A stretch of 64,000 nucleotides of DNA from an uncultured bacterium (GCA_938024995.1 CALJDU010000006.1:83052-147051); one strand, 5' to 3'; counted from the stretch's first letter, positions 611 to 46,115 are shown. Translations and numbers: made by a program. The notes: generated by a model not told the origin, from the letters alone.

Positions 611-1879
611 TCACCACGGCACCTCGGCGAAGTCTTTGAGGAGCACGCCAAAGACCGGCCGCCCCGAAACTCCGCGCGCGATCGGATCACAAATGCGCGC
701 GGCCGCGTCGATCGCGTCGAGCGGCGGACGGAAGCCTTGCTCGTGGGCCCGCTGCTTCTGCTCTTCGGGCGCCTCGTGCGACATCCAGCCTGGGTCCACG
801 CTCACCATATAAACGCCACGCTCCGCGTACGCGTTGGCGCTGGTCTTGGTGATCATGTTGAGCGCGGCCTTGGCCATGTTGGTGTGCGGGTGACGCGAGA
901 GCTTGTCGCCGCGCGTGAACTGACCCTCGAGCGCCGCGACGTTGATGATGTAGCGGTCCGGCGCCTGCGTCTTTTGCATCGCCGGCAAGAGTCGACTGCA
1001 GAGCATGAAGGGGACGATCGCGTTGACGACCTGGCACTCGACCATCTCGACCGTGGGGACGTCTTCGAGATCCAGCACCCAACTGTTCACGCGCCCGTGG
1101 TCAATGTTTCGCAGCGCGCAGGCGGAGGTGGGCAGGAGCGCGAGGGAGGAGGCGGGTTGGCTCTTGCGCTCGATCGGGAGCGCGGGCGCGCGCGTCTCGC
1201 CTTCGTCGAGCGCTTCGTAATAGCTCGGTGGGTGCCAGACCGTTTGAGCCGCGTTGTTGATCAGGATGTCGATCGGCGGACCGGACCGCCAGCGCTCGAC
1301 CTGCTCGATGACATCAGGGAGCGCGCGGAAGTCGAGGCCGACGATCGTCAGGCGATCTCGGAACGAGGCGATGTCCTGTTCGACAGCGTAGCGACGCGCC
1401 GCGTCGGTCGGGAAACGCGTGGTCACCGTGACCTCCGCGCCCGCGCGCAAGAGCCGGAGCGCGGTTTGGTATCCGATCTTGATGCGCCCGCCGGTCACGA
1501 TCGCGCGGCGTCCGCTGAGGTCGGCGGTCAGCTCCCGCTTCGCGCTCGAGACGTCGCCGCACGCCCGGCAGAGCAAGTGGTAAAAGTCGTGCACCTGTCG
1601 GTACGGCTGCTTGCAGACGTAGCAGTTCCGCTCGGCGTGGTACCGCGCGTGCTTCGTTTCGCGCCCTTCCGCGATCGCGACCCGTAGCTCGCGATCGCGG
1701 TTCGCCGCGGCGCGCCTTCGCTTTACCTTCCGCTTCTTCTTGGCTTGCTTGCGCAGAAACGCGGCGGCGTTCTCGACTCTGAGGAAGCGAGGGTCGCTCG
1801 GGTCGAGCGCGCGCAGCTTCTCAAGCGTCGCGAGGCACTCCGTGATCTCCTCGTCGCTCGGCTCTGGCGGATGGGGCAC
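611..1879 (-). CDS. Short-chain dehydrogenase/reductase (SDR) family oxidoreductase with N-terminal Cys-rich extension
   Basis: Rossmann motif AIVTGGRIKIGYQTALRLLRAGAEV; SDR-type NNAA motif. N-terminal ~100 aa are basic/coiled with CYVCK…CRACGD (4 Cys). GTG start. Confidence 0.7.
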   Translation of the reverse strand: MPHPPEPSDEEITECLATLEKLRALDPSDPRFLRVENAAAFLRKQAKKKRKVKRRRAAANRDRELRVAIAEGRETKHARYHAERNCYVCKQPYRQVHDFYHLLCRACGDVSSAKRELTADLSGRRAIVTGGRIKIGYQTALRLLRAGAEVTVTTRFPTDAARRYAVEQDIASFRDRLTIVGLDFRALPDVIEQVERWRSGPPIDILINNAAQTVWHPPSYYEALDEGETRAPALPIERKSQPASSLALLPTSACALRNIDHGRVNSWVLDLEDVPTVEMVECQVVNAIVPFMLCSRLLPAMQKTQAPDRYIINVAALEGQFTRGDKLSRHPHTNMAKAALNMITKTSANAYAERGVYMVSVDPGWMSHEAPEEQKQRAHEQGFRPPLDAIDAAARICDPIARGVSGRPVFGVLLKDFAEVPW

Positions 1880-1959
1880 GGAGCATCATCGCACGCGTCC
1901 GGCAACGTGATCATCTTCGCGTTCCGGAGCCGCGCGCGCGAGATCGATATCCTTCCGCG

Positions 1960-2045
1960 CTCAGCCGCGGGTTCCGGAGCACAGCGGAGAACGCGTGGCG
2001 ATGGCGCCGCAGATGCGGGAACCAACAATATCCTCAGGCCTCTTT
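1960..2045. repeat. Dispersed intergenic repeat, element X plus a truncated Y-like end (gcgggttccggagc.cagcggagaac…ggcgatggcgccgcag.tgcg)
   Basis: About 55 of 60 nt identical to 21304-21365; followed by aaccaacaatat, resembling the Y-element terminus. Confidence 0.5.
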
Positions 2046-2783
2046 GACCATCCGAACGAATGTCCGCATCCCGCGCAGCAGTTCGCGATCGTCCGTGAGT
2101 CGCTCGACCGACTTGGTCATCTCGTTGCAGACGCGGTCAACCTTGTGGTCGAAAGAAGCGAGCTGGGCTTGCTGATGTTGGACCTTGCGCGAGAACCCCG
2201 AGAGCTGCTCATCGGTGGTCTTCTTCTGCTGCTCCTGCATGTTCTCGAACGCGGCCTGGCGGGTCATCAAGGTGTCGACCTTGGTGAGGAGCGAGACGAC
2301 ATCTTCGCGGGGATAACGCGCGCGTTGCCGCATCTCGAGCAAGCGGACCTTGATGTGCGCGTAGACAATCGCGCTGGGTCGCAACAAGGTCGCGAGCAAG
2401 AAGAAGCCCGCGAACCAGTAGCCCAAAGACGAGAACGTCGTGACCGCCAGCGCGACCGCCGCGCAGAGCAGGTGACTCCCGAGAGAGAACGCGAGCAGCC
2501 AGCGCGCGGTCTTCTGCGCGTACTTGATGTCGCTCTGGCTGATCTCCATTTCGCGACGCTGGCTCTCGCGCTGATCGCGGTAAAGCCCACGTGCCTCCAT
2601 GTAGAGGTCCCACGGGAAGCGCAGCACGCTGTAGAGCATGACGACCCCAGCGGTCGCGATCGCGATGTCGAGCCAAGCGACGCCGTCGATGACCACGTTG
2701 GACCACTTGAGGATCGCCAGGCCGATCGCGCCGCATAGGAGCAAAGAGCCGAAGCCGAAAAGGGAGTTGTTGGCGCGTTTCAT
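2034..2783 (-). CDS. Hypothetical membrane protein with C-terminal coiled-coil
   Basis: Internal ATG at 2783 (MKRANNSLFGFGSLLLCGAIGLAI…) gives 249 aa with 4-5 TM segments then a Q/E-rich coiled coil. The upstream part of ORF 2034..3116 overlaps the next gene and is low-complexity. Confidence 0.45.
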   Translation of the reverse strand: MKRANNSLFGFGSLLLCGAIGLAILKWSNVVIDGVAWLDIAIATAGVVMLYSVLRFPWDLYMEARGLYRDQRESQRREMEISQSDIKYAQKTARWLLAFSLGSHLLCAAVALAVTTFSSLGYWFAGFFLLATLLRPSAIVYAHIKVRLLEMRQRARYPREDVVSLLTKVDTLMTRQAAFENMQEQQKKTTDEQLSGFSRKVQHQQAQLASFDHKVDRVCNEMTKSVERLTDDRELLRGMRTFVRMVKEA

Positions 2784-2826
2784 GAGGGGAGTGCCTAGGG
2801 TTGGAGAGAGTGGGAAAGGGAGCTGA

Positions 2827-4671
2827 CTACTCAGCGAGCATCTTGGCGACGACCTGCTCGAGCTCTTTCGCGCGGAGGCCCTCGGGCGCGATCGGGGCGC
2901 CGCACGCGACGCCGATCTTGGAGAACGCGCGGCGCGGCATGGCCCGCATCGGCTTCCCGTTCTTGAAGCTGAAGAAGCTGCCCCAGAGCCCCTTGAGGAC
3001 GACGGGGACGACGGGCACCTGGCGACGCGCGAGGATCTTCTCGACGCCGGGCTTGAAGGGGTTGAGCTGACCGTCGCGGGTGAGCTTTCCTTCCGGGAAG
3101 ATGCCGACCAGGTCACCGCTCGCGAGCGCGTGATCGATCTCGTCGAACGCGGCCTCGAGGAGCTCCGGGTCCTCGCGTCGCGACGCGATCGGGATGGCGC
3201 GCGTTACCTTGAAGAAGCTGTTGAGCACCGGCATCGAGAAGAAGTCGTTGCCCATGACGAAGCGGATCTGGCGCTCGGTCAGGCCGCCCAAGATGAAGGC
3301 GTCGACCCAGGAGACGTGGTTGCAGACGATGAGCGCCGCGCCTTCTTCCGGGATCTGATCGAGGCCCTGGACCTCGACGCGGTACATGAAGCGCACGAGG
3401 CGTCGAATCGCGACGTGGATGACCTCGCGGTGCGTGTGGATGAGACAGACGCCCGCGATGATGACGTTGAGCGAGAAGACCACCGCGAGGCGACCCGCGA
3501 CGCTGACCCCCGCCGCGGCGAGCGCGACCGCGAGGACGGTGGAGACGACCATGAAGCCGGCGTTCATGATGTTGTTGGCCGCGACCACGCGGGACTGCGC
3601 GCCTTCCGGAGCGCGGGCCTGCATCAAGGCGTAGAGCGGGACGATGAAGAGACCGCCCGCGGTGCCGACTCCGACCAGGTCGAGGTAAACGCGCCAGAGC
3701 TGATCACTCGTAAAGACCGAGGCCACGTACGCCAAGTCGAACCCGAAGGCGCTCAAGAGGAGCCCCGCGATCGGGACCAGGGCGACCTCGACTTTGCCGT
3801 GTGTCAGACGCTCACAGAGGATCGAGCCGAGGCCGACGCCCAGGCTGAAGACCGCGAGCAACGTGGTGACGCTCTGCTCGCCTGACGCGCCGGTGACCGC
3901 GAGCACCTCCTTGGCGAGCATCGGGAGCTGCCCAAGGAGGAACGCGCCGACGAACCAGAACCAGCTCGCGCCCAAGATGGAGAGGTGAACCGCCCGGTTC
4001 GAGCGACCGATCGCGAGCGCTTTCTGGGTCGCGCGGAACAGGTTGAGGTCAAGCGGAACCGAGCGCGCGGTGAGCGAAGGCGGCGCGTCGGGGATGAGGC
4101 GAGCGCTCGCGAAACCACAGAGCGCGGTGCCCAAAAGCGCGAGGGTCAGGGCGAGCGTCCCGATGGTCGGGAGCGCGATGATCATGCCGCCCGCGATCGT
4201 GCCGACCAGGATCGAGGTGAAGGTGCCGAGCTCGATCAAGGCGTTGCCCGCGACCAGCTCGCCGTCTTCCAGGTGCTGCGGCAAGACGCCGTACTTCACG
4301 GGTCCGAAGAACGCCGACTGGGAGCCCATCAAGAAGAGCGCGCCGAGTAGGAGCGGGACGCTCTCGATGAAGAAGCCGACGGTCGCGAGCGCCATGACGC
4401 CGACCTCCGCGAGCTTGAGGCCGCGGATGAGCTTCGCCTTGTCGACGCGGTCCGCGATCTGTCCCGCGAGCGCCGAGAACAAAAAGAACGGGAGAATGAG
4501 CAGGGCGGTGCACAGGTTGATCAAGAGCGAGAGCGACGCCCCCGACTGTGCCGCGGCACCAAACGTGAGGACGACAATCAGCGCGCTCTTGAGAACGTTG
4601 TCGTTCAGCGCTCCCAGGAACTGGGTGACAAAGAGCGGGGCGAAACGGCGAGTCTGGAGCAGGCGGAGCAT
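2827..4671 (-). CDS. MFS transporter fused to C-terminal lysophospholipid (PlsC-type) acyltransferase domain (LplT/Aas-like)
   Basis: N-terminal ~400 aa with 12 TM helices of MFS type. C-terminus has the HX4D motif (CNHVSWVDAFIL) and FPEGKLTRDG, an acyltransferase motif III. Confidence 0.65.
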   Translation of the reverse strand: MLRLLQTRRFAPLFVTQFLGALNDNVLKSALIVVLTFGAAAQSGASLSLLINLCTALLILPFFLFSALAGQIADRVDKAKLIRGLKLAEVGVMALATVGFFIESVPLLLGALFLMGSQSAFFGPVKYGVLPQHLEDGELVAGNALIELGTFTSILVGTIAGGMIIALPTIGTLALTLALLGTALCGFASARLIPDAPPSLTARSVPLDLNLFRATQKALAIGRSNRAVHLSILGASWFWFVGAFLLGQLPMLAKEVLAVTGASGEQSVTTLLAVFSLGVGLGSILCERLTHGKVEVALVPIAGLLLSAFGFDLAYVASVFTSDQLWRVYLDLVGVGTAGGLFIVPLYALMQARAPEGAQSRVVAANNIMNAGFMVVSTVLAVALAAAGVSVAGRLAVVFSLNVIIAGVCLIHTHREVIHVAIRRLVRFMYRVEVQGLDQIPEEGAALIVCNHVSWVDAFILGGLTERQIRFVMGNDFFSMPVLNSFFKVTRAIPIASRREDPELLEAAFDEIDHALASGDLVGIFPEGKLTRDGQLNPFKPGVEKILARRQVPVVPVVLKGLWGSFFSFKNGKPMRAMPRRAFSKIGVACGAPIAPEGLRAKELEQVVAKMLAE

Positions 4672-9471: not shown

Positions 9472-10800
9472 ATGCGACTTAGAGTTTTGCTTGTCGCGCT
9501 GGCGCTCATGGCGTTCGCGTGTGGCGACGATGACACGTCAACCGACACGAACCCCCCGATGGACACGGGCGGCATCGATAGCAACGTCGACACTGGGGGC
9601 CCGGACGTCGTGGATTCGTCGATGGACGTGCCCGACGGTGACCTCCCCGACGTTCTGCCCGACGTGATGATTCCAGATGGCGGCGGCGGAGAGTGTGCGG
9701 AAGGAGAGATCATCTCGTTCTACGAGCTCGCGACCGGGTTCGCTTTTGACCAGCGACGAGTCGACATCTCGGGTCACTCCGGTGGGTTTGAGGTGACGTG
9801 GCGAGCGAACGATGGCGGGGACAACTTGTACGTCGCGCGGATCGCGCGAGAAGAGGGCGCCGAGCCTGTGATCACGCAGGTGACCGACGACTTCTCCATC
9901 TCAGGTTCACCCGCGATTCTCTCCATCGACACGACCAACTCGGTGCTCGCGTGGTTCGACAACTCGTCCGAGAACTTCGAGATCTACGCGCGGCAGCTCT
10001 CCTCTGGCTCCCCGCTCGCGCTTCGACGCATCACGAACACCGCGCTTCGCGAGGACAACCCCACTCTGATTTACAACGGCGCGAACCCGCTGCTCGGTTG
10101 GATTGAGGACTCGGGCGCGTCTCGCCAGATCAAGCTTCAGGAGCTCTCCGCAGCGGGTGCGCCGATGGGCACACCGACGGCGATCACATCGGCTGCAAAC
10201 TCTCCGCAGCGGATCGCGATGGCGCGCGCGGGCGACAACATCGCGGTGGCATGGACCGATACGACGAGCACCGGCACCAACGTCATGACGCAGATCGTGA
10301 CGCCTGAGGGAACTCCGATCGCCACGCCGACCACGATCACGTCCGAGGGGAACGCCTTGGGCGCGGTCGACATCACCGAGACCACCGCGGGCGCTGCCCT
10401 GGCGTACGGCGTCTCGATCGACGGCGTCCGCTCGGAGGTGCGCTTTCGCGTGATCGACGCCGCGGGGGCGACCGCCACGGGCGAGCGAATTTTGACGTTC
10501 GCGCCGGAGGAAGGCTCCGACCCGGGCATCGTTCAGCTCGCGGGTGGCTACGTGGTCGCGTATCGCGCGACGCGTGATGAGGGCCTCGAGTTCCCAGAGC
10601 TTCGGGTCGTCTTCGTCGACTCGGGTGGAGACATCATCGCGACTGACGAGCCCGGCTTCGCGATGAGCGAGCAGGGCGGACCGGTGTCGATCGCGACCTC
10701 AGGTCCGGGCTACGCGATGGCGTGGGCCGATGTGGACGAGTCCGGAACGACGATTCGCGCCGCGATGTTCCGCTGCCTCGTCTTGGGAGACGAAGGATGA
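9472..10800 (+). CDS. Secreted lipoprotein, hypothetical (repeat-rich, beta-propeller-like)
   Basis: Lipoprotein signal MRLRVLLVALALMAFAC|GDDD; D/G-rich linker; repeated ~45-aa units. The stop overlaps the next start (ATGA). Confidence 0.5.
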   Translation: MRLRVLLVALALMAFACGDDDTSTDTNPPMDTGGIDSNVDTGGPDVVDSSMDVPDGDLPDVLPDVMIPDGGGGECAEGEIISFYELATGFAFDQRRVDISGHSGGFEVTWRANDGGDNLYVARIAREEGAEPVITQVTDDFSISGSPAILSIDTTNSVLAWFDNSSENFEIYARQLSSGSPLALRRITNTALREDNPTLIYNGANPLLGWIEDSGASRQIKLQELSAAGAPMGTPTAITSAANSPQRIAMARAGDNIAVAWTDTTSTGTNVMTQIVTPEGTPIATPTTITSEGNALGAVDITETTAGAALAYGVSIDGVRSEVRFRVIDAAGATATGERILTFAPEEGSDPGIVQLAGGYVVAYRATRDEGLEFPELRVVFVDSGGDIIATDEPGFAMSEQGGPVSIATSGPGYAMAWADVDESGTTIRAAMFRCLVLGDEG

Positions 10801-11858
10801 CGCCGCGCATCGCTTTCCTCTGTACGTTGCTGGCCTGTCTCGTGGTTGTCGGCTGTGGCGACGACGACGCCTCACCACCGCCTCCACCCCCGATCGATAC
10901 CGGATCGCCACCGGACACGACCCCCAGTGACAGCGGGGTCGACAGCAACATGGACGCCCCCGATCCGATGGACGGAGATGTCGGAGATGCGGGCGACGCG
11001 GATGTCCCTGACGTGATGCTCGACACGAGCGTTGGGGACGGTGGTGAGCGTGACACGGGGCTTGTCTTTCCGGACGACACCGGGCTCTCGGACGACGTCT
11101 CGACCGATGTCGAGGGCGTGGATGCGTGCTCCACGGTGTTGGATGGCATTGTTTGCCCGGACCTTCCGGAGACGTGTGGACCCGGTCTGACCTGTGTCGA
11201 TGATGGCTGCGGAGGACGGGTCTGCATCCCGTCGTCTCACCGCTGCTCGACGGCAGAGGACTGCCCCGCGGGGAGCATGTGCATGGAGGTCGAGCCGGGC
11301 GCGGAGCCTACGTGCATTCGTGGGTCAGGCTGCGGTGACTCTCGTGATTGTGCGTTCGGCTTTGCGTGCGAAGCGGGAGCCTGCGTGGACCGGCGCGTGG
11401 GTTGCGACGCCCCGCCTGCGACGTGTCCGCAGGGCTACGTGTGCATGGACACCTCAGATTTTGGGACCGACCTCACGTGCGTCCCGGCGCACTACAAGTG
11501 CGACACCGATGTTGCCTGCGATGGGGTCCCGCTCTTCTCGATCTGCGCGGATGTGGATGGAGATGGAAACAATGAGTGTGTGAGTGAGACCGGGTCGTGC
11601 ACGACCTCAGAGATGTGCGGAGACCTCACCTGCATCTACGACACTCGCTTCGGCGGGATGAACTGCTCCAGCAGTGGCCTTTGTGCAGACGCCACCGATT
11701 GTGGCGCAGGTTACAGCTGCGTCGATCTGTGGGGTGACGGTCTCAAACAGTGTGTGGAGGCAGGATCATGCAGCTCCACGGCTGATTGTCCTGCACCTCA
11801 GATCTGTGCAGTGCCGTTCGGCGAAACCACCCCTCGTTGTTGGGGTGAAGGCATCTAG
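10797..11858 (+). CDS. Cysteine-rich secreted lipoprotein (repeated C-x-G-x-x-C modules)
   Basis: Signal MTPRIAFLCTLLACLVVVGC|GDDD; ~40 Cys in tandem modules (…CPAGSMCMEVEPGAEPTC…CGDSRDCAFGFACEAGAC…). Confidence 0.55.
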   Translation: MTPRIAFLCTLLACLVVVGCGDDDASPPPPPPIDTGSPPDTTPSDSGVDSNMDAPDPMDGDVGDAGDADVPDVMLDTSVGDGGERDTGLVFPDDTGLSDDVSTDVEGVDACSTVLDGIVCPDLPETCGPGLTCVDDGCGGRVCIPSSHRCSTAEDCPAGSMCMEVEPGAEPTCIRGSGCGDSRDCAFGFACEAGACVDRRVGCDAPPATCPQGYVCMDTSDFGTDLTCVPAHYKCDTDVACDGVPLFSICADVDGDGNNECVSETGSCTTSEMCGDLTCIYDTRFGGMNCSSSGLCADATDCGAGYSCVDLWGDGLKQCVEAGSCSSTADCPAPQICAVPFGETTPRCWGEGI

Positions 11859-12008
11859 GCCTCGCACTTTTTTCATACACATGAAGTTGATGCACTCGCG
11901 AGAGATAATTTTGTGAATGATTACAACGAGTATGGCTCGGCGTAATCGTTGCATTCTTCCTACGCGGGTGCGTCTGCATCCGTTCGGATTTCGAGATTGG
12001 GTGAGACG

Positions 12009-14621
12009 ATGAAGAGGGTCCTTTTTCTCGCGTTTTCCATGGCGCTTTTGGCGTCATGCACGGAAGGCGGCGATCCTGCGCCAGCTGCGCCGACGCCTGG
12101 AACCGAGTTTCCAGAAGCGCCGCAAGCCATCACTGGAGATGCGGGGTCTTGTGCAGAACCCGCACCAGGGTGTCCATGTTCCGAAGGCGCAGAGCCCGTG
12201 GACTGCTATCTCGATCCGATCGAGGTGGATGGAACGCTGACCTGCAACGCGGGCCAGATGTTCTGCGTGGATGGCACCTGGAGCGAGTGTCGCTCGCTTC
12301 GGTCGTTTGAGATCGAGAGCGAAGCCTCTCTCTCGGACGGTCCGCTCGAGTGCAACCCGTGCAACCCCGACTGCTCCCGTTCCACCGACTACCCCAGCGC
12401 CGACGATCTCACCCCGGAGCGAGCGGATGGAGTCGTCGCGGTACCTGGCGGTATCTCGCTCGAAGGCGAGACGATGACCGAGCTCCTCGACACGGACGGT
12501 GACGGGATTCCAGACGACGCAGACTCGTGTCGCACCACGCCAGGAACACCTGAGTACTTTGGTTGCCCTTCTGGGACCGAGAGCGGTTTCTACCACTCGC
12601 TCCCGTTTGGTGGTCCGGTGGAAGTCGACCCTCTCTCCTTCCCGATCACCGTCACCACGGCAGACGTCTACTTCCTGATGGACACGACCGGTTCGATGGG
12701 TGGTGAGATCTCCAACCTTCAGCGCGGCCTGACCTCCGGCACCTACGTCGCCGGGTGTGGCGGCGGCGTCATTGGCGGTATTGGATGCATCGTTCCCAAC
12801 GCCTGGTTCGGCGCGGCGTTCTTTGACGACTATCCCGTGAGCCCGTACGGCTCGAGCGGTTCTGGTGATGAGGTTTACCGGAACCGCCAGGACCTGACGT
12901 CAGACGCGGCGGCTGCGCAGCGCGCGGTGACCGGCTTGCGTCGTCACTACGGTCGGGACGGACCCGAGAGCAACAGCCAGGCGATCTGGGCAGTAACCAC
13001 GGGTCGCGGTCTCGGTCGTTACCTCACAAACCGAAGCAGCTGTCCGGATGGTCGCTGGGGTTGGCCATGTTTCCGCGCGGACACGATCCCGATCATCGTT
13101 CAGTTCACCGACGCGACCTATCACCAGGGTCCCAGCGGTCAGAACTACAACCCGCGCATCCTCGCGGGTGGCGGGAGTGCTGGAAGCGGTCCGTACGTGG
13201 ATCCCAGCCCGTTCCGATACGTTTACGGCAACCACGACCAGTCACGCGCGGTGTACGCTGGCGACGCGACCCGCGACTGGAACGGCTTTTCGGGCAACAC
13301 CTGCCTTCACAACAACGCCTACAACAACATCTACTGCAACGGGCTCTACTCGCCTGATGTGGTCTTCCGCTTCACCGCAACCAGTACGCGGAACATCTTG
13401 GTCTCGACCAAGGACTCCACCTACAACACCGTCGCGGGCATTCGTGACTACCGGTTCCGTTACCGTAGTTGCAACGACAACGACACGCGCGCCGGCAGCC
13501 TGAACTCGTACATGGACTACCGCGTGTCGGCAGGCACTTGGTACGTCATCGTCGACGGCTATGGCTGGCGTTCCCGCCGCCGCGTCTGCACCACCTACTA
13601 CTGGTGGGGTCGGCCGCGCACGTCGTGTCGCTACACCTACGTCTACAACTCCAGCTGCGGCAACTACAAGGTCGCGATCGGAACCCCTCCCCCGCCTGAG
13701 ACCGATACCGGATCGGGTCCGCTCCCCGTGACCTGGCCCGAGGTGGTTCGCGCGGTTCGTGAGCGCGGCATCAAGATGATCACCGTCGAGTCGAGCGGTG
13801 GTTGGGGCGGCGCGCGACCGGACTCGGTTGCGCTCGCGAACGCGACCGGGTCGACCGACGCGCGCGGAGCTCCCTTCGTGTTCTCGATCAGTTCGTCGGG
13901 GTCGGGCCTCGACCGCGCGGTCATCGACGCGGTCAGCATCCTCGCGAACAACTCTCGCTACGACGTGGCGGCGCGTGGGTCGGACAACCCAGCGACTGAG
14001 ATCGACGAGCGAAACTTCGTCGAGCGCGTCACCGCGGTGAGCTTCCCAGCAGGTCGCTGCACCGGAAAGACGGCGTCAACGTTCCTTCAGTGTCTCCCCG
14101 GCACCTCGGTTCGCTTCGACGTCGCCTTTAGAAACGACTTCGTACGTCCCACGACAACCGCCCAGGTGTTCAACTTCTTCATTGAGGTGACGCTCTCGGG
14201 CATTGTGCAGACGCGCGTCCCGGTCCGAATCGTGGTTCCGCCCGATGTCACGACCTACGAGCCGGGCTCGTTCTCCCGTGTCTACGACGCGAACACGCGG
14301 TGCGAGATTCCGCCGGAACGACCTGACTGGGGGACCTTCACCTACCGGTCCAACACACCGGATGACTCGAAGATTCGCTTCGTCTTCCAGACGGCGAACA
14401 CCGAGGCGGGGCTCGCTGGAGCCGATCCGCTCACCATCGCCGTTCCGCTTGCGGACGATGACGGGAGCTTTGACCTAGGTCAGTTCCTGGTCGACAACGG
14501 CCAGCAAAACTACAGACCGTACGTCAAGATGACAGCGTTCCTCGATCCTTCCTCGAGCCGAACCGCGGCCCCAACACTCACTGGGTTTGAGCAGACGTTT
14601 GTCTGCGCTGACGCGGAGTAA
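12009..14621 (+). CDS. Large secreted lipoprotein with von Willebrand factor A (VWA) domain
   Basis: Signal MKRVLFLAFSMALLASC; MIDAS motif in VYFLMDTTGSMGGEI; Cys-rich N-terminal region; ~870 aa. Confidence 0.6.
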   Translation: MKRVLFLAFSMALLASCTEGGDPAPAAPTPGTEFPEAPQAITGDAGSCAEPAPGCPCSEGAEPVDCYLDPIEVDGTLTCNAGQMFCVDGTWSECRSLRSFEIESEASLSDGPLECNPCNPDCSRSTDYPSADDLTPERADGVVAVPGGISLEGETMTELLDTDGDGIPDDADSCRTTPGTPEYFGCPSGTESGFYHSLPFGGPVEVDPLSFPITVTTADVYFLMDTTGSMGGEISNLQRGLTSGTYVAGCGGGVIGGIGCIVPNAWFGAAFFDDYPVSPYGSSGSGDEVYRNRQDLTSDAAAAQRAVTGLRRHYGRDGPESNSQAIWAVTTGRGLGRYLTNRSSCPDGRWGWPCFRADTIPIIVQFTDATYHQGPSGQNYNPRILAGGGSAGSGPYVDPSPFRYVYGNHDQSRAVYAGDATRDWNGFSGNTCLHNNAYNNIYCNGLYSPDVVFRFTATSTRNILVSTKDSTYNTVAGIRDYRFRYRSCNDNDTRAGSLNSYMDYRVSAGTWYVIVDGYGWRSRRRVCTTYYWWGRPRTSCRYTYVYNSSCGNYKVAIGTPPPPETDTGSGPLPVTWPEVVRAVRERGIKMITVESSGGWGGARPDSVALANATGSTDARGAPFVFSISSSGSGLDRAVIDAVSILANNSRYDVAARGSDNPATEIDERNFVERVTAVSFPAGRCTGKTASTFLQCLPGTSVRFDVAFRNDFVRPTTTAQVFNFFIEVTLSGIVQTRVPVRIVVPPDVTTYEPGSFSRVYDANTRCEIPPERPDWGTFTYRSNTPDDSKIRFVFQTANTEAGLAGADPLTIAVPLADDDGSFDLGQFLVDNGQQNYRPYVKMTAFLDPSSSRTAAPTLTGFEQTFVCADAE

Positions 14622-14654
14622 CCACTGAAGCGATCGCTCCTGTTCTTCGCCGTC

Positions 14655-16388
14655 GTGCTCCTCGTTGGGTGCGGCGGCGATGACGTTTCGGATACGTCAT
14701 CGGACACTGGTGATTCCGGAATGGACGCGCAAGTTCCGGATACGAGCGACGCGACAGACGCCACGACTGACGCCGTGCTGGCGGACGCCTCCGACACGGC
14801 GGTGTTTGATGGCGAGCCGCCAACCTTCGACGCCGCGGGGACCTGGTTCGAGGAGCGCGGTGACCTCGGCTTTCGTCGCCGCGCCAAAGACGGCTTCGCC
14901 TCGCTCGGCGATCGCATGTCGGGTGGCGTGTGCGTCATCGACGCGGATGGTCGACCTCCGCTCGATCTCTTCTTCGCGCTGCGTCCATGGGAAGACGACG
15001 ATGGAGCTCATGGCGCGAAGCTCTTCACCGCCGACGGCCCCTTCGACTACCGGCCCGCATCACCTGCGCTCTTCGGTGCGCTGGACACCATCACGGACGC
15101 GATCGGATGCCTGGCGTTCGACGCCGACGGTGACGGTGACGACGACCTCTTGGTCACCGAGTACGGCGGCCTTCGCTTCTTCGAGCGCGGAGCGTCTGGA
15201 TTCGTGGCGCGGCCTGACGCGTTTAGCCTCCCCGCCGATCCCCAAGCGGTCTACGCGAGCGCAGCGGCCGGCGACCTCGACCAGGACGGCGATCTCGACC
15301 TCGCGATCGCGGGCTTCTATCGCTGGGACGAGGAGCGCTTCATCGGCGTGGAGTGCAGCAGTATCGGTTGCTCCAACGAGCTCGTCTTACTCGAACCGTT
15401 GCCGAACCTCCTGCTGATCCGCGGGCCCGACGGTCGCTACACCTCGCGCCCCGATCTCGCGCCAGACATGACGCGGGAAGAGCCGACTCTGGTCGTGATG
15501 ATCGCGGACCTGGACGTCGACGGGCTCCCTGACATCTACGTCGGCAATGACCTCGGCACCACGTACGAGGATCGCCCGCTCAGTCGCGATGAGGACGGCA
15601 TCTTTCGCGACGTGTCGATCCAGATCGGGCTGGCGTTTAACGAGGCGCGCCGCGGGGTCGACACGATGGCGGCGACCCGAGGCGACATCGACGGCAACGG
15701 TCGCCTCGACCTGGTCTCGACGAGCTTCGAGGGCGACCGGACCGCGGTCTTCCTCTGCGGCGATGATGGCTATTGTGAAGACCGCGACATCGGGACCTCG
15801 ATCACCGAGCGATCGTTTCGCTGGGGCGCGGCGCTAGCGGACTTCGATCGTGACGGCTTCATCGATCTCTTCGAGGCCAGCGGGAACATCCTGAGCGAAG
15901 CGGAGATCTCGCTTGGCCGTGCGCTCGGTCCGCAATACCAACGGCCCAACGTCTACCAAAACCAAGCCGGTTCGTTGGTCCCGGTGACCATCAGCGGAGA
16001 CATCGCGACGCCTCGCGCGGCCCGCGGGATCACCGTCGCGGACCTCGATGACGATGGCGACCCGGACGTGGTCCTCGCGCCTTCGGAAGGTGCGCCCGTG
16101 ATGTTCGAGAACGTGCGCGCTCCCGCCGGACACTGGCTCCGCGTGGTCCTCGACGCGCCACCGCCGAACACTCGCGCGGTCGGGGCGATGGTACGGGTCG
16201 TGACGCCGCGGCAGACCTACCTCCGTGAGCAGAGCGCGGGAGAGGGCTATTTGGGTAACTTCGACTCGCGGATCCTGTTCGGGATCACCGACCCCGAACC
16301 CGTTACGGTCATTGTGCGCTGGCCAAACGGCGAGGAGACGATCGCGCGCGACATCGCGGTCGATCAAGAAGTAACGTTGTCCCCATGA
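14655..16388 (+). CDS. CRTAC1-family protein: FG-GAP/VCBS repeats + C-terminal ASPIC/UnbV domain (lipoprotein)
   Basis: GDLDQDGDLDLAIAG, DIDGNGRLDLVST and DDDGDPDVVLA are FG-GAP Ca-binding repeats. C-terminal VGAMVRVV…REQSAGEGYLGNFDSRILFGI is an ASPIC/UnbV signature. The true start may be an upstream CTG at 14625, giving LKRSLLFFAVVLLVGC as the lipoprotein signal. Confidence 0.7.
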   Translation: MLLVGCGGDDVSDTSSDTGDSGMDAQVPDTSDATDATTDAVLADASDTAVFDGEPPTFDAAGTWFEERGDLGFRRRAKDGFASLGDRMSGGVCVIDADGRPPLDLFFALRPWEDDDGAHGAKLFTADGPFDYRPASPALFGALDTITDAIGCLAFDADGDGDDDLLVTEYGGLRFFERGASGFVARPDAFSLPADPQAVYASAAAGDLDQDGDLDLAIAGFYRWDEERFIGVECSSIGCSNELVLLEPLPNLLLIRGPDGRYTSRPDLAPDMTREEPTLVVMIADLDVDGLPDIYVGNDLGTTYEDRPLSRDEDGIFRDVSIQIGLAFNEARRGVDTMAATRGDIDGNGRLDLVSTSFEGDRTAVFLCGDDGYCEDRDIGTSITERSFRWGAALADFDRDGFIDLFEASGNILSEAEISLGRALGPQYQRPNVYQNQAGSLVPVTISGDIATPRAARGITVADLDDDGDPDVVLAPSEGAPVMFENVRAPAGHWLRVVLDAPPPNTRAVGAMVRVVTPRQTYLREQSAGEGYLGNFDSRILFGITDPEPVTVIVRWPNGEETIARDIAVDQEVTLSP

Positions 16389-18091
16389 ACGCCAAGTCAT
16401 CACTCACGAGCGCGCTGGTCGCGTTCGCGCTCCTGACGGGGTGCGGAGATGACGACACTGGAGGCGTCTCGGACTCCGGCACGTTGGACACGGGAAGCGA
16501 CGTGATGACCGACACCGGCGAGGTCGACACCGGCCCCGTCGATCCGACCTGGTTCAACGAGGTCGGCGCGGACATCGGCGTCGACATTGAGTTCGTGAAC
16601 ACCTACGACACCTTGACGCGACGGATGCTCGCGGGGGTGTGCGTAATCGATGTCGACGGAGAGGCGCCCCTCGATCTCTTCTACGCGCTCGGCGACAAGA
16701 CCGGCGACAACCTCTCGCGCCTCTACGTTGGTCAGGGCGAGATGCGCTTCGCGGACGAGACGAGCGAGCGGATGGGCGAGCTGCCGATCGCGGGCGGTTG
16801 CCTCGCTTTCGACATCGATGGAGACCGCGACGACGACCTGATCCTCACGGGCCTCGGTTTGGTCACCGCGTACATCAACGACGGCGGAACCTTCACGCGT
16901 CGGGACGACCTCTTTGACGTGGAGGTCGATGAGTTCGACATGATGACCTCCGCGGCGGCCGGAGATCTCGACGGCGATGAAGATCTCGACCTCGTCGTGT
17001 CCGGCTTTATGAACCGAAGAGAGGCGCTCACGGTCGGCGGCACGTGTGGGTTCGTTCCGTGCGCGGTTGAGATCGCGCCCGAGACCGAGATCCGAAACTA
17101 CGTCTTCGCGTGGAACGGAGCGCGCTACGAGGACGTGACCGAGACCCTTGTGCCGGGGATGATGACGCCGGCCGCGACGCACACCGTCATGATCACGGAC
17201 ATCGGCGACGACGGGATCCAGAACATCTGGCAGGGCAACGACTTCGGCCACATCACGTTCAACGCGGTCTACGGTTATCGTGATGGGGTCTATGAAGATT
17301 TCTCGGAGCTCCACGGGATGATCTTCAACCGGCTGGAGTCGGGCCAGGACACAATGGGGTTCACCCAAGGCGACGTGAACAACGACGGCATCATGGACTT
17401 CGCGTCGACGGACTTCGAGCGTCGCGCGTCTGGGATCTACGTCTGTGATGAGGACCTCCACTGCGCCGACGCCTCGCGCAACATCGGCACCGAAGAGCTG
17501 GCCGACAGCTTTCGCTGGGGGAACGCGTTTGTGGATCTCGATCTCGACGGGTGGGTCGATCTGGTCGAGGCGACGGGTCAGATTTACTCCATCCTCGAGA
17601 CGAACGCGCTTGGGTTTAGCAGCCTCGCGCTGCAGCGACCGAACATCATGCGGAACCACCGCGGCACCTTTGAGCCCGCGGACCCGGTCGAAGGTGAAGC
17701 CCACGGAGAGGTGTACGCGACCCGCGGGATCAGCGTGACGGACCTCGATGACGATGGGCTGCCCGATGTCCTCTTCGCCCCCGTCTTCGGGCGCGCCCCG
17801 GTCTTTCACAACATCCGCGCGACCGATGGGCACTACCTGCGCGTGGTCCTCGAGGGGCGCGCTCCGAACACCGGCGCGGTCGGCGCCAAGGTGACCCTGC
17901 GCGGCGAGACGCAGACCTTGATCCGTCGCCGCCTGGCCGGCGAGGGCTACCTCGGGAACTTCGATCCGCGCATCTTTTTCGGCACCGTGGATGAGGGGCC
18001 CTACGAGGTCATCGTGAAGTGGCCGGACGGAACCACCACGACCCGAAGCGACGTCCCCGCGGACAGCGAAGCGGTCTTTCGCCAAGAGTGA
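16385..18091 (+). CDS. CRTAC1-family protein paralog (FG-GAP repeats + ASPIC/UnbV), lipoprotein
   Basis: Signal …ALVAFALLTGC|GDDD; same architecture as the upstream gene (VGAKVTL…LAGEGYLGNFDPRIFFG). ATGA overlap implies translational coupling. Confidence 0.7.
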   Translation: MNAKSSLTSALVAFALLTGCGDDDTGGVSDSGTLDTGSDVMTDTGEVDTGPVDPTWFNEVGADIGVDIEFVNTYDTLTRRMLAGVCVIDVDGEAPLDLFYALGDKTGDNLSRLYVGQGEMRFADETSERMGELPIAGGCLAFDIDGDRDDDLILTGLGLVTAYINDGGTFTRRDDLFDVEVDEFDMMTSAAAGDLDGDEDLDLVVSGFMNRREALTVGGTCGFVPCAVEIAPETEIRNYVFAWNGARYEDVTETLVPGMMTPAATHTVMITDIGDDGIQNIWQGNDFGHITFNAVYGYRDGVYEDFSELHGMIFNRLESGQDTMGFTQGDVNNDGIMDFASTDFERRASGIYVCDEDLHCADASRNIGTEELADSFRWGNAFVDLDLDGWVDLVEATGQIYSILETNALGFSSLALQRPNIMRNHRGTFEPADPVEGEAHGEVYATRGISVTDLDDDGLPDVLFAPVFGRAPVFHNIRATDGHYLRVVLEGRAPNTGAVGAKVTLRGETQTLIRRRLAGEGYLGNFDPRIFFGTVDEGPYEVIVKWPDGTTTTRSDVPADSEAVFRQE

Positions 18092-18146
18092 GTCGTTCGC
18101 CCGCTTCGTTTGACTTGCGTCCGCGCGCCCCTACCATCTCCGGCCG

Positions 18147-19112
18147 GTGAGCGTCGTACGAAAGTGGTGGTGGACTCTTCCTCTTCTCGCCGTCGTGATC
18201 GAGCTCATCGGGCATGTAAACGTTCGCGCGCGCGTCCCTTCCGATGCCCACTGGACCGCCGCGTCGGACTACATCCGCGCGAACTTCGACGAGGACGACA
18301 CGATCGGGGTCGCGCCGGCCTGGGCGGATCCCACGCTGCGCTATCACCTCGGCGATCTCATCCCGCTCTCGCACGCGGCCCGTTCTGACCTCGCGAGCGC
18401 GGACCGCTTCTGGGTCGTGTCTCTTCGCGGTCAGATCTCGCGCTACACGCCTCATCGTGACGGCGAGCCGGTTACGCCGGATCACATCGAGCGCTTCGGC
18501 CCCGTGTCGGTCCTTCGCTATGACCTCGGCGCGTCGCCGGTCATTTTTGATCTGACCTCGCACGTTGATGAGGCCACCGTTTCCATCACGGAGAACGATG
18601 AAGAGAAGCCGTGTCGATGGAGCGTCGCTCGAGAGCGCGGACGGGGCGGTCTCTCCACCAACACGATCCTCCCGAAGGGGCGCTTCCGCTGCGACCCGCG
18701 TCGCGATTGGTTGGCGGTCGCCGAGACCGCGATCGAGGATCTGGATCTGCAGCCGCGTCACTGCGTGTGGCAACACCCTCCGAACCGAGACGGCTTGGTC
18801 CGGACGGTCTACGAGGACGTCCCGCTCGGTGAGCGCATCGTGCTCTACACCGGCATCTACTACGAACACGAACGCACGCGGGAGCGACCTCCGTACTCCG
18901 TGCGCGTTCTGGTCGACGGTTCCGAGGTCGGGCGGCTCGATCATGAAGACGGGGACGGCTGGGCGCGCATCGAGCTCCCCACGCAGCTGCACGGGACCCG
19001 CAAAGAGCGCGGCGATATCGCGGTCGAGGTTTTCGCGGAGGTGAACCCGCACTTCAAGTCGGCGTGTTGGTCGGCGACGGTTCGCGGCCCTCGGCGCGAG
19101 GTCGGCGAGTGA
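18147..19112 (+). CDS. Hypothetical membrane-anchored (signal-anchor) protein
   Basis: N-terminal TM segment WWWTLPLLAVVIELIG; no recognisable motifs; its stop overlaps the GTG start of the next gene (GTGA). Confidence 0.4.
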   Translation: MSVVRKWWWTLPLLAVVIELIGHVNVRARVPSDAHWTAASDYIRANFDEDDTIGVAPAWADPTLRYHLGDLIPLSHAARSDLASADRFWVVSLRGQISRYTPHRDGEPVTPDHIERFGPVSVLRYDLGASPVIFDLTSHVDEATVSITENDEEKPCRWSVARERGRGGLSTNTILPKGRFRCDPRRDWLAVAETAIEDLDLQPRHCVWQHPPNRDGLVRTVYEDVPLGERIVLYTGIYYEHERTRERPPYSVRVLVDGSEVGRLDHEDGDGWARIELPTQLHGTRKERGDIAVEVFAEVNPHFKSACWSATVRGPRREVGE

Positions 19113-20827
19113 GCCAAGAAGTGACCCGATCGCGCGGCGTGATCACTGGCTGGCGCGATCATCTCATCGGGCTCGTGCTCGCGACCGCATACGTCGCGCT
19201 CTTGCTCGGGACGTCGACCGCGATCGGCATGTCGCGCGACGAGGGTTTCTACGTCACGGCCACGCACGCTTATGCGCGGTGGTTCGAGAAGCTCGCGGAG
19301 GACCCGACCGAGGCGCTCACCGATGACGCGATCGACCACGGCTGGACCTACAATCATGAGCACCCAGCGCTCATCAAGACGCTCTTCGCGTGGTCGTATC
19401 TCGCGAACAAGCACTTCGACATCTTCGACAAAGAGTCGATGGCGTATCGCTTCCCGGGAATGCTCAGCGCGGGCTTACTGCTCTGGCTGATCTACATCTT
19501 CGGCGCGCGCGTCTTCGGACGAGAAGCAGGGCTCTTCGCTGCGCTGGCGTACGGCTTGATGCCGAGGCCCTTTTATCACGCGCACCTCGACTGCTTTGAC
19601 GTGCCCATCGTCCTGATGCTGACGTGGGTCACGTATTGCTATTGGCGCTCGCTGACCCGGAGACGCTGGGCGGTGATGCTCGGGATCGCGTTTGGCGCGG
19701 CCCTCGCGACCAAGCACAACAGCTGGGTGATGCCGGGGATCTTCTTGATTCACTTCATCTGGATGCGACGAGGGCAGCGACGCTTCCCACAGGCGGCGCG
19801 GCTCGACGGAGCGCCTTGGTGGCTCCTCGCGATGGTCATCATCGGGCCGGTGCTCTTCCTGCTCTCGTGGCCGTGGCTCTACCACGACACGATGCTCCGG
19901 ATCGGCGCCTACGTCCGCTTCCACGTCGGCCACGTCTACTACAACATGGCGTACTTCGGTCATAACTACTTCCAGCCGCCGTTCCCGGTCGCCTTCCCCT
20001 TCGTGCTGACCCTCTTCACGGTGCCGCTCACGACGCTCGTGCTCTGCGTGCTCGCGCTTGTGTTCCGCGCCCGGACGTACGCGCCTCGTTTCCTTTCGCG
20101 CTTCGTCAGCGGGGCGACCCCCGACCGCGAACACACCGACGTGCTCTTGGTCGGCGTGTTGCTCGCTCCGCTCGTCATCATCGCGCTCCCGAGCTCACCG
20201 ATCTTCGGCGGGACCAAGCACTGGATCACCGGCTACCCGTTCCTCGCGATGTACGCCGGCTACGCGGTGACCCGCGTCGTCGATCGTCTCAAGACGTTCG
20301 AGTTCGGTCGCTTCATCCCGCGCTTCGCGGTCTCCGCGGTCTTGCTCCTTCCTTCGCTGGTCGAGAGCGAGCACAGCCACCCGTACGGGCTCTCGCACTA
20401 CACTTTCGCGGCCGGTGGTGTTCCCGGCGCCGCGGACTACGGGATGAACCGACAGTTCTGGGGCTTCACGACCGGGAGCGTGGTCGGCTTTCTCAACGAG
20501 CGCTTGAAGGACGGCGGGAGCGTCTACATTTGCGACACGGTCGGCGAGGCCTGGAACATGTTGCAGAAGGATGGACGGCTCGCGCAGAACATCCGCGTCA
20601 GCTGGGACATCACGCGCGCCGACCTTGTCCTCGTTCATCACGAGCACCACTTCGCCGAGGTCGACATTCAGACGTGGGTCGCCCACGGCGTGACGCAGCC
20701 GGTTCATGTTCTCGAGTACGACGGCGTCCCGCTCGTCACGATTTATGAGAACCCGCGTTCCAAGACCCAACGTGAGCAGCGGCGGCAGCGGCTTCAGCGC
20801 GCGGCCGAAGCGACGACGACCAAGTAG
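19109..20827 (+). CDS. GT-C fold membrane glycosyltransferase, PMT/ArnT-like (GT39/GT83-type dolichyl-phosphate-mannose-protein mannosyltransferase family)
   Basis: 10+ TM helices; first periplasmic loop GMSRDEGFY carries a DE motif; overall layout of the PMT_2 family. Putative GTG start at 19109. Confidence 0.55.
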   Translation: MSQEVTRSRGVITGWRDHLIGLVLATAYVALLLGTSTAIGMSRDEGFYVTATHAYARWFEKLAEDPTEALTDDAIDHGWTYNHEHPALIKTLFAWSYLANKHFDIFDKESMAYRFPGMLSAGLLLWLIYIFGARVFGREAGLFAALAYGLMPRPFYHAHLDCFDVPIVLMLTWVTYCYWRSLTRRRWAVMLGIAFGAALATKHNSWVMPGIFLIHFIWMRRGQRRFPQAARLDGAPWWLLAMVIIGPVLFLLSWPWLYHDTMLRIGAYVRFHVGHVYYNMAYFGHNYFQPPFPVAFPFVLTLFTVPLTTLVLCVLALVFRARTYAPRFLSRFVSGATPDREHTDVLLVGVLLAPLVIIALPSSPIFGGTKHWITGYPFLAMYAGYAVTRVVDRLKTFEFGRFIPRFAVSAVLLLPSLVESEHSHPYGLSHYTFAAGGVPGAADYGMNRQFWGFTTGSVVGFLNERLKDGGSVYICDTVGEAWNMLQKDGRLAQNIRVSWDITRADLVLVHHEHHFAEVDIQTWVAHGVTQPVHVLEYDGVPLVTIYENPRSKTQREQRRQRLQRAAEATTTK

Positions 20828-22099: not shown

Positions 22100-22660
22100 T
22101 CAGCGATCGGGCGGAACGAAGCGCGCACCGATGCGGTAGGGCATCTCAAAGGAGGGCCCGCGGCAGGTCCCGCCGAGACAGGTCCCGGTCGTGCAGTTCG
22201 CGGGCGCCCGAGAGTCAAAGCGGACCGTGATCTCTTCGCGCGCGGAGAGCCGAGGGCCGACGAACACGTTGGGCACGCTCGCCTCGATGACTCCATCTTG
22301 CGCGACCGGGTCGCCGTTGCTCTCGCCGTCGTCTAAGAGCGTCGTGAGGTTGACGATCGACACGATCGGCTCACCCATCTCATCGATCATCCCGGTCTCC
22401 GAGATCGCGCGAACGATGATCTCGTGGGGGAAGGGCGCGGCGTCGCACTTGTCGAAGGTGACGCGGAAGTCGACCGCGGCCATGGGGTTGTCCAGCTCAA
22501 CGGCTTCTGGCGAGATGGTCGCGCCGGTGATCACCGAGTACTCGTAAGGCAGGCAGTTTGGGATGAGCTCTCCCGCGCAGCTCTCCTCAAGATCGCTCCC
22601 TGTGCACGCGGTGGTCAACATCGCGAGCGCGATCGCGGCGAGCAAAGTGGGCTTGGTCAT
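22100..22660 (-). CDS. Hypothetical lipoprotein
   Basis: Signal MTKPTLLAAIALAMLTTAC|TG; 6 Cys; no known motif. Confidence 0.5.
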   Translation of the reverse strand: MTKPTLLAAIALAMLTTACTGSDLEESCAGELIPNCLPYEYSVITGATISPEAVELDNPMAAVDFRVTFDKCDAAPFPHEIIVRAISETGMIDEMGEPIVSIVNLTTLLDDGESNGDPVAQDGVIEASVPNVFVGPRLSAREEITVRFDSRAPANCTTGTCLGGTCRGPSFEMPYRIGARFVPPDR

Positions 22661-43594: not shown

Positions 43595-43673
43595 ACGAGC
43601 GGAGCCGTTGGTGCGGCACGCGGGTTGTAACCCCGCCGGCTCTGTCCAAGGAGGTTCGATTCCTTCCCGCTCG
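43595..43673 (+). tRNA. tRNA-Tyr (anticodon GUA), class II with long variable arm
   Basis: Acceptor cgagcgg/ccgctcg perfect; anticodon arm gcggg-TTGTAAC-cccgc; 13-nt variable arm; T-arm ggagg-TTCGATT-ccttc; short D-loop. Confidence 0.5.
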
Positions 43674-43678
43674 ACTGG

Positions 43679-43836
43679 GTTTTGGGAGGGTCTGTTCGGA
43701 CCCTCCCTCCAAATAGCCAAGTGATTTGGAGCCTCCCTCCTACGTTCGCTTCGCTCAGTTTTTGGAGGGTCTGTTCGGACCCTCCCTCCAAATAACCAAG
43801 TGATTTGGAGCCTCCCTCCTACGTTCGCTTCGCTCA
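43679..43836. repeat. Two tandem 79-bp copies of array repeat family (hairpin ggagggtc-tgttcg-gaccctcc + tail ttggagcctccctcctacgttcgcttcgctcag)
   Basis: Directly visible; copies 43679-43757 and 43758-43836 are ~97% identical. Confidence 0.8.
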
Positions 43837-43941
43837 TCGCTCCTTCGTCGCTCTTGTTCGTGCTCGCGTGCGTTCGTTTCCTCGTCACTCGCTTCGCTCG
43901 TTTTCGCCAACCCAACCCAACCCAACCTCAACACACAACAC

Positions 43942-44647: not shown

Positions 44648-44650
44648 AAT

Positions 44651-44723: not shown

Positions 44724-44761
44724 CCGGTCGATGGCTGTCATGCAGCCAGCGACCAAAGCAA

Positions 44762-46111: not shown

Positions 46112-46115
46112 CCGG

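Follow-up and report, generated by a model that had tools for sequence, protein, structure and literature searches.

The DNA analysed here is a 64,000-nucleotide stretch (the window) from an uncultured bacterium (GCA_938024995.1, CALJDU010000006.1:83052-147051), whose genome is that of a Sandaracinaceae-like member of the Polyangia, a soil or sediment myxobacterium. Its plus strand carries, between positions 9472 and 20827, seven consecutive open reading frames (g1–g7), which encode a series of lipoproteins, one of them (g3) resembling the beta chain of integrins, followed by a membrane-anchored protein (g6) and a membrane glycosyltransferase (g7). The initial annotation of this region had reported 4-nt start/stop overlaps at three junctions of these same-strand genes, and this was confirmed both in the open reading frames and in the junction sequences, which read ATGA at 10797 (g1/g2), ATGA at 16385 (g4/g5) and GTGA at 19109 (g6/g7). 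The remaining genes are separated by 150 nt (g2–g3), 3 or 33 nt (g3–g4) and 55 nt (g5–g6). The g1/g2 and g6/g7 overlaps recur among the genes called on related contigs. None of the seven proteins gave a match in NCBIfam, and nothing significant was found with Pfam for g1, g2, g3 and g6 of the window. The genes, the regions recognised within g3 and a small gene further downstream (p175) are listed in Table 1.

Table 1. Features of the g1–g7 locus, with the regions of g3 (positions counted from the first nucleotide of the window; aa, amino acids).
Feature	Position	Strand	Description
g1	9472-10800	+	Lipoprotein, 442 aa; Asp/Pro/Gly-rich linker, then about seven repeats of ~50 aa
g2	10797-11858	+	Cys-rich lipoprotein, 353 aa; eight 4-Cys units
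g3	12009-14621	+	Lipoprotein, 870 aa; beta-integrin-like head
g3, TSP3 calcium repeat	12489-12542	+	DTDGDGIPDDAD, aa 161-178; weak Pfam TSP_3 match, E 0.006
g3, beta-I-like VWA, N-terminal half	12588-13148	+	aa 194-380; D225-T-T227-G-S229, E233, D317-G-P-E320, T367-D368
g3, all-beta PPC-type insertion	13149-13709	+	aa 381-567; splits the VWA domain
g3, VWA C-terminal half and C-terminal beta-sandwich	13710-14618	+	aa 568-~660 and ~661-870; from secondary structure of the model
g4	14625 or 14655 to 16388	+	FG-GAP_3 and UnbV_ASPIC (CRTAC1-like) lipoprotein; variable accessory gene; probable start CTG 14625
g5	16385-18091	+	Tandem paralog of g4
g6	18147-19112	+	321 aa; N-terminal membrane anchor and periplasmic domain
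g7	19109-20827	+	GT-C glycosyltransferase, Pfam PMT_2, 572 aa
p175	22100-22660	-	Small Cys-containing lipoprotein, ~175 aa; may belong to the glycosyltransferase module as its third member

All products except that of g7 had been proposed to carry signal peptides or lipoboxes. Lipobox signal peptides are readable in g1 (MRLRVLLVALALMAFAC), g2 (...LVVVGC), g3 (MKRVLFLAFSMALLASC) and g5 (...ALLTGC), whereas g6 possesses a membrane anchor and no lipobox. In the case of g4, the lipoprotein signal KRSLLFFAVVLLVGC exists solely with translation from CTG 14625; the public gene call of g4 begins 32 codons later, with the loss of the signal peptide. The stop codon of g3 (TAA, 14619-14621) is in frame with g4 and CTG 14625 lies one codon downstream of it, an arrangement (14619-14657) which does not differ between two assemblies built from the source metagenome. 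As the g3 stop is in frame and the signal peptide is obtained from CTG 14625 alone, the sequence points to a non-canonical start codon for g4 or, less likely, to read-through.

The product of g3 had initially been described as a von Willebrand factor A (VWA) protein, and this is upheld by its predicted structure and by homologs with VWA or Integrin_beta matches, even though Pfam misses the window protein itself. In total, 238 homologs of g3 were detected in metagenome-assembled genomes of Myxococcota, the named sources comprising Sandaracinaceae, Polyangiaceae, Myxococcales, Myxococcota and Deltaproteobacteria. Some of these match the Pfam families VWA, VWA_2, PPC or bacterial TSP3, and in one distant homolog (P0108) Integrin_beta (PF00362) was above threshold, over its first 60 positions only. 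An AlphaFold2 model of g3 was built from an alignment of 25 homologs (mean predicted local distance difference test, pLDDT, 78.8). When this model was compared with the PDB using Foldseek, the best 50 matches were all integrin beta chains, with E values from 1.5e-12 to 1.8e-10 and a probability of 1.00, over approximately 570 aligned columns at a sequence identity of 12–13%. A profile covering the N-terminal half of the beta-I domain gave weak matches to PDB sequences (E 0.04–2), 25 of 26 being integrin beta.

The metal-binding motifs of integrin beta have recognisable counterparts in g3. In the HMMER alignment, ADVYFLMDTTGSMGGE of g3 pairs with DLYYLMDLSYSMKDD, and G-x-DGPESQ-x-QAL pairs with NLDSPEGGFDAIM; the g3 profile matches DLYYLMDLSYSM and LDSPEGGFDA of integrin beta-1, its motifs lying opposite DLSYS and DSPE. 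The motif of the MIDAS type (metal-ion-dependent adhesion site) in g3 is D225-T-T227-G-S229, with Thr replacing the first Ser of DxSxS, and the D-x-P-E loop is D317-G-P-E320. Residues D225, T227, S229, E233, D317, E320, T367 and D368 are invariant across the 25 homologs. From published integrin structures and the alignment of these motifs, such residues would be the ligands of the MIDAS and of the neighbouring calcium sites. Since the 50 best Foldseek matches, the weak profile matches and the invariant metal-site motifs all point in the same direction, the product of g3 is integrin-beta-like, and more than a generic VWA protein.

Upstream of the VWA domain, g3 has a Cys-rich region (27 Cys occur in the whole protein) and one thrombospondin type-3 (TSP3) repeat, in which D161, D163, D165 and D169 are invariant and which aligns with the repeats of this type in 5wtl. 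A profile of the insertion which interrupts the VWA domain matches 2luw and collagenase pre-peptidase C-terminal (PPC) domains in the PDB, and 18 of the 25 homologs have a Pfam PPC match. This insertion is missing in a shorter class of g3 paralogs of approximately 700 aa and in the class of P0050, a Polyangiaceae version of 989 aa (L034, 5775-8744). The C-terminal region, comprising the second half of the VWA domain and the beta-sandwich, is kept in P0050 and in locus L032, and in P0050 it contains an extra canonical VWA domain (Pfam, aa 592-768). No C-terminal membrane-spanning helix was detected in g3 by a hydropathy scan, and the lipobox is present. Tandem duplication of the gene was observed in some relatives (L005, 7347-12475; L041, 9398-14491), with two copies of approximately 830 aa.

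To place these genes in context, related contigs were gathered by exact-protein look-ups and by a metagenome scan with a sub-alignment of the g3 beta-I half (80 loci), and were screened with tblastn. A scan of the genome collection with the full g3 alignment was swamped by the thrombospondin-repeat pattern and returned distant or irrelevant loci only; the sub-alignment was then applied successfully to the metagenomes. About 30 related loci were covered by the cluster comparison. The three genes g1-g2-g3 (the triad) are kept together in approximately 25 loci (including L004, L005, L031–L034, L038, L040, L041, L047, L048, L050–L052, L054, L058, L059, L073, and L117), with the g1-g2 start/stop overlap recurring. 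Where enough flanking sequence was present, g6-g7 flank the triad in 17 of 21 loci, being collinear after g3 in 12, divergent in three (L058, L073, and L117) and otherwise rearranged in two (L045 and L046). The seven genes, initially described as an operon, are thus not one conserved operon; they split into three modules (g1-g2-g3, g4-g5, and g6-g7), the conserved partners of g3 being g1 and g2. Promoter and terminator consensus sites across the 12-kb region were no more numerous than expected by chance; the single sigma-70-like promoter match (18110-18137) lies in the g5–g6 gap, which fits with g6-g7 as a separate unit. No tandem DNA repeats were found in the region.

Both partners of g3 in the triad are repeat-containing lipoproteins. 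For g1, a profile of the N-terminal half aligns to the C-terminal half in several registers shifted by approximately 50 residues (hhalign probability 89–97%), from which about seven repeats follow. The suggestion that g1 is beta-propeller-like is therefore plausible only, the repeat number being compatible with a seven-bladed propeller, although no Pfam or PDB match accompanies it and the number of repeats is no proof. An FG-GAP propeller was also considered for g1 and rejected at the profile level, with similarity to the g4/g5 FG-GAP profile at 0.07% probability. The description of g2 as a Cys-rich repeat protein holds, as 37 Cys are present and the mature part consists of eight C-x5-C-x5-C-x(4-11)-C units. 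In two metagenome contigs, g1 and g2 are fused in one open reading frame of 690–700 aa (L051, ~1226-3313; L054, ~1560-3569), while no g1-g3 or g2-g3 fusions were found among 438 retrieved proteins. Orthologs of g1 were found beside g2-g3 in approximately 20 loci. Orthologs of g2 stand before g3 homologs in 37 loci, some of which lack g1; at the loci of this last kind, a single g2-like gene or two of them lie 5' of the g3-like gene.

The second module is formed by g4 and g5, which were correctly recognised at the outset as tandem FG-GAP and ASPIC paralogs. Both have FG-GAP_3 and a C-terminal UnbV_ASPIC domain above Pfam thresholds, with E values of 3e-25 and 9e-13 for g4 and of 2e-19 and 4e-12 for g5, and they share 39% identity. 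FG-GAP/ASPIC genes were absent from most triad loci in the tblastn screen, and such a gene was found 3' of a g3 homolog elsewhere only in L051, L052 and L054, as a single copy in each. These genes are lineage-variable lipoproteins, ordinary members of a very common family, and their link with g3 is occasional.

The third module consists of g6 and g7. The product of g7 matches Pfam PMT_2 (E 7e-14) and has more than 1320 close homologs at 55–61% identity, whose source names include ArnT family, GT39 and phospholipid-carrier-dependent glycosyltransferase. Its AlphaFold2 model (pLDDT 82, predicted TM-score 0.87) has the GT-C fold, with Foldseek matches to STT3/PglB/AglB (E 3e-8 to 3e-6) and ArnT (E 1.7e-7), followed by ALG12 and Pmt4. 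The residues R43-D44-E45 (nt 19235-19243), in the first periplasmic loop, are invariant in the alignment, as are many others. The GT-C fold and this invariant loop motif give g7 the appearance of an active GT-C enzyme. The acidic DE motif of loop 1 does not discriminate GT39, as it is common to ArnT and other GT-C enzymes.

The assignment of g7 to the protein-O-mannosyltransferase type, as first put forward, is borne out as far as the PMT_2 match and the GT-C fold, and no further. In two structure searches the model was about equally near to ALG12, ArnT, STT3/AglB and PMT, no family being ahead, and PDB sequence searches with g7 found nothing. Greater proximity to the protein mannosyltransferases than to other GT-C families, together with a Pfam PMT match, was not observed for g7, and some of its orthologs match Pfam PMT weakly. 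The structural similarity to ArnT is high, though not above that to other GT-C enzymes; no NCBIfam ArnT model was matched, and arn-type neighbours were absent around the window gene, where lipoproteins, a NUDIX gene and an FAD oxidase were found instead. On the evidence of the model and of these searches, g7 can be called a PMT_2-family GT-C glycosyltransferase, to which neither a protein O-mannosyltransferase nor an ArnT role is assignable.

In every related locus examined, g6 is called 5' of g7, the two genes overlapping by 4 nt. The family of g6 is large (1579 clusters at E ≤ 0.001) and comprises standalone proteins of approximately 300–330 aa, in which Pfam recognises no domain. An invariant Glu19 is located in the N-terminal membrane anchor and four invariant Cys in the periplasmic domain, features which match the expectation for a periplasmic domain held at the membrane beside a partner. 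Owing to the constant translational coupling, the invariant anchor Glu and the four invariant Cys, g6 looks like a membrane-anchored partner of g7. A fusion of g6 to the glycosyltransferase was considered for P0171 and rejected, as none is present there. In P0354 (593 aa), a g6-like N-terminal part is joined to PMT_2, representing either a true fusion or a frameshifted contig. Seven related loci have a homolog of p175 directly at the 3' end of the GT-C gene (with coordinates 11707-12234 in L034 and 11674-12207 in L118), in either orientation and sometimes with a 4-nt overlap, and it stays 3' of the enzyme even at loci without the triad. In the window p175 is found 1.3 kb downstream of g7, with a NUDIX gene and one other gene intervening. 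No Pfam match was obtained for p175.

On balance, and with modest confidence, we interpret the locus as a mosaic of three co-directional modules in which a calcium- or metal-dependent surface adhesin, the triad, is associated with periplasmic glycosylation. What the analysis shows is the structure of the genes, the folds of the domains, the conservation and the neighbourhood; for the triad, we infer a surface location, the formation of a complex and a role in adhesion. The products of g1, g2 and g3 would assemble into a lipid-anchored, disulfide-stabilised, divalent-cation-dependent cell-surface adhesin, to which g3 would contribute an integrin-beta-like, metal-ion-dependent binding head after a thrombospondin-type calcium repeat, g2 a disulfide-rich, stalk-like protein, and g1 a repeat protein, probably a propeller. 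The genes g4 and g5 would have been recruited beside g3 in a few lineages. The products of g6 and g7, together with p175, would constitute a widespread membrane glycosylation unit, with g7 moving a sugar from a polyprenyl-phosphate carrier, at the periplasmic face, onto a periplasm-exposed acceptor and g6 acting as its membrane-anchored partner; the acceptor and the sugar are likewise inferred. Given that the third module remains beside the first through several rearrangements, its most likely clients are the adhesin proteins or a surface glycan with which they work.

A number of observations weigh against this interpretation. The g3 protein of the window has no Pfam VWA or Integrin_beta (PF00362) match above threshold, g1 has no match in Pfam, NCBIfam or PDB sequence searches, and g2 gave no Pfam match and only noise in a PDB sequence search. 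No gene for a polyprenyl-phosphate sugar synthase (GT2) occurs within the cluster. The triad was found without g6-g7 at four loci (L031, L032, L048, and L052), each with at least 5 kb on both sides, and g6-g7 were found without the triad at two (L036 and L118). The Asp/Pro/Gly-rich linkers of g1 orthologs have a Ser plus Thr fraction of 0.02–0.21, which is not higher where the glycosyltransferase adjoins. Unrelated genes in the flanks (among them FAD-linked oxidase, 2-oxoacid dehydrogenase subunits, CDP-alcohol phosphatidyltransferase, PilZ, SurA-like, and M16 peptidase) are common to many of the collinear loci as well, so that part of the conservation is plain relatedness and collinearity alone is weak evidence. 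Lastly, the glycosyltransferase is both more conserved and more widespread than g3, which fits with a general role of this enzyme in the envelope.

Such a role is the most serious of the alternatives, although we regard it as rather less probable. According to this explanation g6-g7, with or without p175, would be a general envelope glycosyltransferase, acting in an ArnT-like manner on lipid A/LPS or on another glycan or lipoprotein, and its adjacency to the triad would simply be inherited gene order. The pair standing alone at L036 and L118 agrees with this, as do the synteny of the housekeeping flanks, the presence of p175 beside the enzyme where the triad is absent, and the numbers of close g7 homologs and g6-family clusters, both of which are far above the number for g3. 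ArnT is also among the top structural matches of g7 and has the highest sequence identity among them (15–17%). When four glycosyltransferase homologs were sampled from long contigs, the triad adjoined two (L034 and L117) and not the other two (L036 and L118). However, inherited order does not readily account for the five loci without common flanks (L045, L046, L058, L073, and L117) in which adjacency to the triad outlasts inversion or rearrangement. These loci speak more strongly for a functional link between the triad and the glycosyltransferase pair, and the lack of an NCBIfam ArnT match and of arn-type neighbours also argues against an ArnT-like function.

The related proposal that the enzyme glycosylates substrates encoded in its own operon finds partial support, as the pair is linked to adhesin genes in several orders, but it also occurs without them and the linkers are not consistently Ser/Thr-rich. 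Ser/Thr-rich linkers were considered as conserved sites of O-mannosylation and were not supported, the Ser plus Thr content being variable and often very low. A simple model of linker O-mannosylation is thus disfavoured by this composition, by the lack of a carrier synthase gene in the cluster and by the distribution of the glycosyltransferase, which is wider than that of the triad. Nothing was found in literature searches on myxobacterial O-mannosylation.

Two further explanations concern the likeness to integrins as a whole, which the initial annotation had extended to both the alpha and the beta chain. The beta half of that comparison stands with g3, while the FG-GAP alpha analogues accompany g3 homologs in only three other loci. 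An integrin-like pair in which the FG-GAP propellers of g4/g5 would be the alpha and g3 the beta partner, both O-mannosylated by a PMT-type enzyme, could draw on the FG-GAP/ASPIC gene directly 3' of the g3 homolog in the window, L051, L052 and L054, on the beta-integrin-like result of the structure search with g3 and on the integrin-type FG-GAP propellers known in bacteria (PMC3192720). It is nevertheless improbable, given that these genes are missing from most triad loci, that the PMT assignment of g7 is not favoured over ArnT, ALG or OST, and that the Ser/Thr content of the linkers is not conserved. Somewhat less unlikely, though still speculative, is that the triad corresponds in bacteria to the integrin ectodomain, in a split and lipid-anchored form, with a seven-repeat g1 propeller docking on the beta-I-like head of g3 in the manner of the animal alpha-subunit propeller, g2 serving as the Cys-rich stalk and a dedicated pair of GT-C enzyme and g6 glycosylating the complex. 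The propeller/beta-I head of g1 and g3 that this would entail is equally tentative, its support being limited to gene linkage and repeat number. If true, this would be a prokaryotic heteromer of the alpha/beta-integrin type, encoded by an operon, and would bear on how integrins originated.

A role for the triad as an accessory adhesin of type IV pili (at the pilus tip or associated with PilY1), and not as a free surface adhesin, was raised by locus L032 (562-13116). Here, the triad is directly 3' of three minor-pilin (N_methyl) genes, PilY1 and a gene of 174 aa, all on the same strand, their junctions being short or overlapping. This linkage was found in one locus only; there are no pilus genes in the window, and the surroundings of the triad, in the window as in the other loci, contain no homologs of pilins or PilY1, making this explanation very unlikely. 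At L032, a gene with an FGE-sulfatase domain follows the triad on the same strand.

Among characterised proteins, the closest described relative of g3 would appear to be CglD (MXAN_0962) of Myxococcus xanthus, with the two being compared by description. A preprint describes CglD as a lipoprotein of the outer membrane which is rich in Cys, carries thrombospondin-type repeats and a VWA domain resembling that of beta-integrin, is exposed at the surface and is required for calcium-dependent gliding adhesion; its gene reportedly does not cluster with the known genes of the gliding apparatus. Both g3 and CglD are Cys-rich lipoproteins of Myxococcota in which a TSP3 calcium repeat (DxDxDG) precedes the VWA domain, and in both the integrin beta I domain with its MIDAS motif is what this domain matches best in structure. 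They differ in the number of TSP3 repeats (one in g3 and 12 in CglD) and in length (870 and 1130 aa), and the PPC-type insertion within the VWA domain, the conserved triad with g1 and g2, and the adjoining GT-C pair set g3 apart from the description of CglD. The headpiece of metazoan integrin beta (PDB 3FCS_B and 4WK2_B) resembles g3 in fold (Foldseek E ~1e-12, ~570 columns), in the DxS/TxS MIDAS motif, in the D-x-P-E motif and in the TDA-x-x-H strand. Unlike integrin beta, g3 is a lipid-anchored bacterial lipoprotein without a transmembrane helix or cytoplasmic tail, and it lacks a conserved FG-GAP partner; PSI and I-EGF domains were not detected, the PPC insertion is present, identity is limited to 12–13% and Pfam gives no Integrin_beta match.

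With the GT39 O-mannosyltransferases (the Pmt enzymes of Streptomyces and Mycobacterium with Ppm1, PMC5882110, and yeast Pmt1/2/4), g7 has in common the GT-C fold, the Asp-Glu motif of the first loop and the PMT_2 domain. It differs from them in having no MIR domain and no Ppm1-like gene nearby, and in its partner g6, which has no counterpart in PMT systems. ArnT (GT83), the lipid A 4-amino-arabinose transferase (PDB 5EZM/5F15), differs from g7 in that the latter does not match the NCBIfam ArnT models, is not surrounded by arnA/B/C/D/E/F-type genes and is coupled to g6 and to lipoprotein genes. The products of g4 and g5 resemble CRTAC1/ASPIC FG-GAP proteins and the bacterial integrin-type propellers already described (PMC3192720), with which they share the FG-GAP_3 repeats, with calcium loops of the DxDxDG type, and an UnbV_ASPIC domain at the C-terminus.

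Elsewhere in the window, an array of 34 tRNA genes, for almost every amino acid, was found on the plus strand within approximately 11 kb (43596-54780). The G+C content of this array is approximately 0.59–0.61, compared to 0.64–0.69 in the rest of the window, and three large open reading frames inside or beside it gave no Pfam match. The region may represent a tRNA gene array or an island of mobile or phage origin.

Both FG-GAP/ASPIC proteins and enzymes of the PMT_2 family are common, and a lipoprotein of the CglD type was already known; the locus is thus an extension of a known kind of myxobacterial adhesin and not a new kind of system. The papers searched contained no description of an integrin-beta/propeller operon, of a beta-integrin-like protein within a fixed three-gene module, of the PPC insertion or of a repeated linkage to a GT-C enzyme and g6. 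Bacterial beta-integrin-like lipoproteins have hitherto been described mainly through one Myxococcus protein, CglD. In the locus analysed here and its approximately 30 relatives, a protein family related to CglD is accompanied by two constant partner lipoproteins and, in most cases, by a GT-C pair. This provides candidates for the subunits of a bacterial integrin-like adhesin and for its maturation, as well as for a protein- or glycan-modifying GT-C family which is widespread in the Polyangia. Should the partners indeed form a propeller/beta-I head, the idea that integrin-style heteromers predate eukaryotes would become directly testable.

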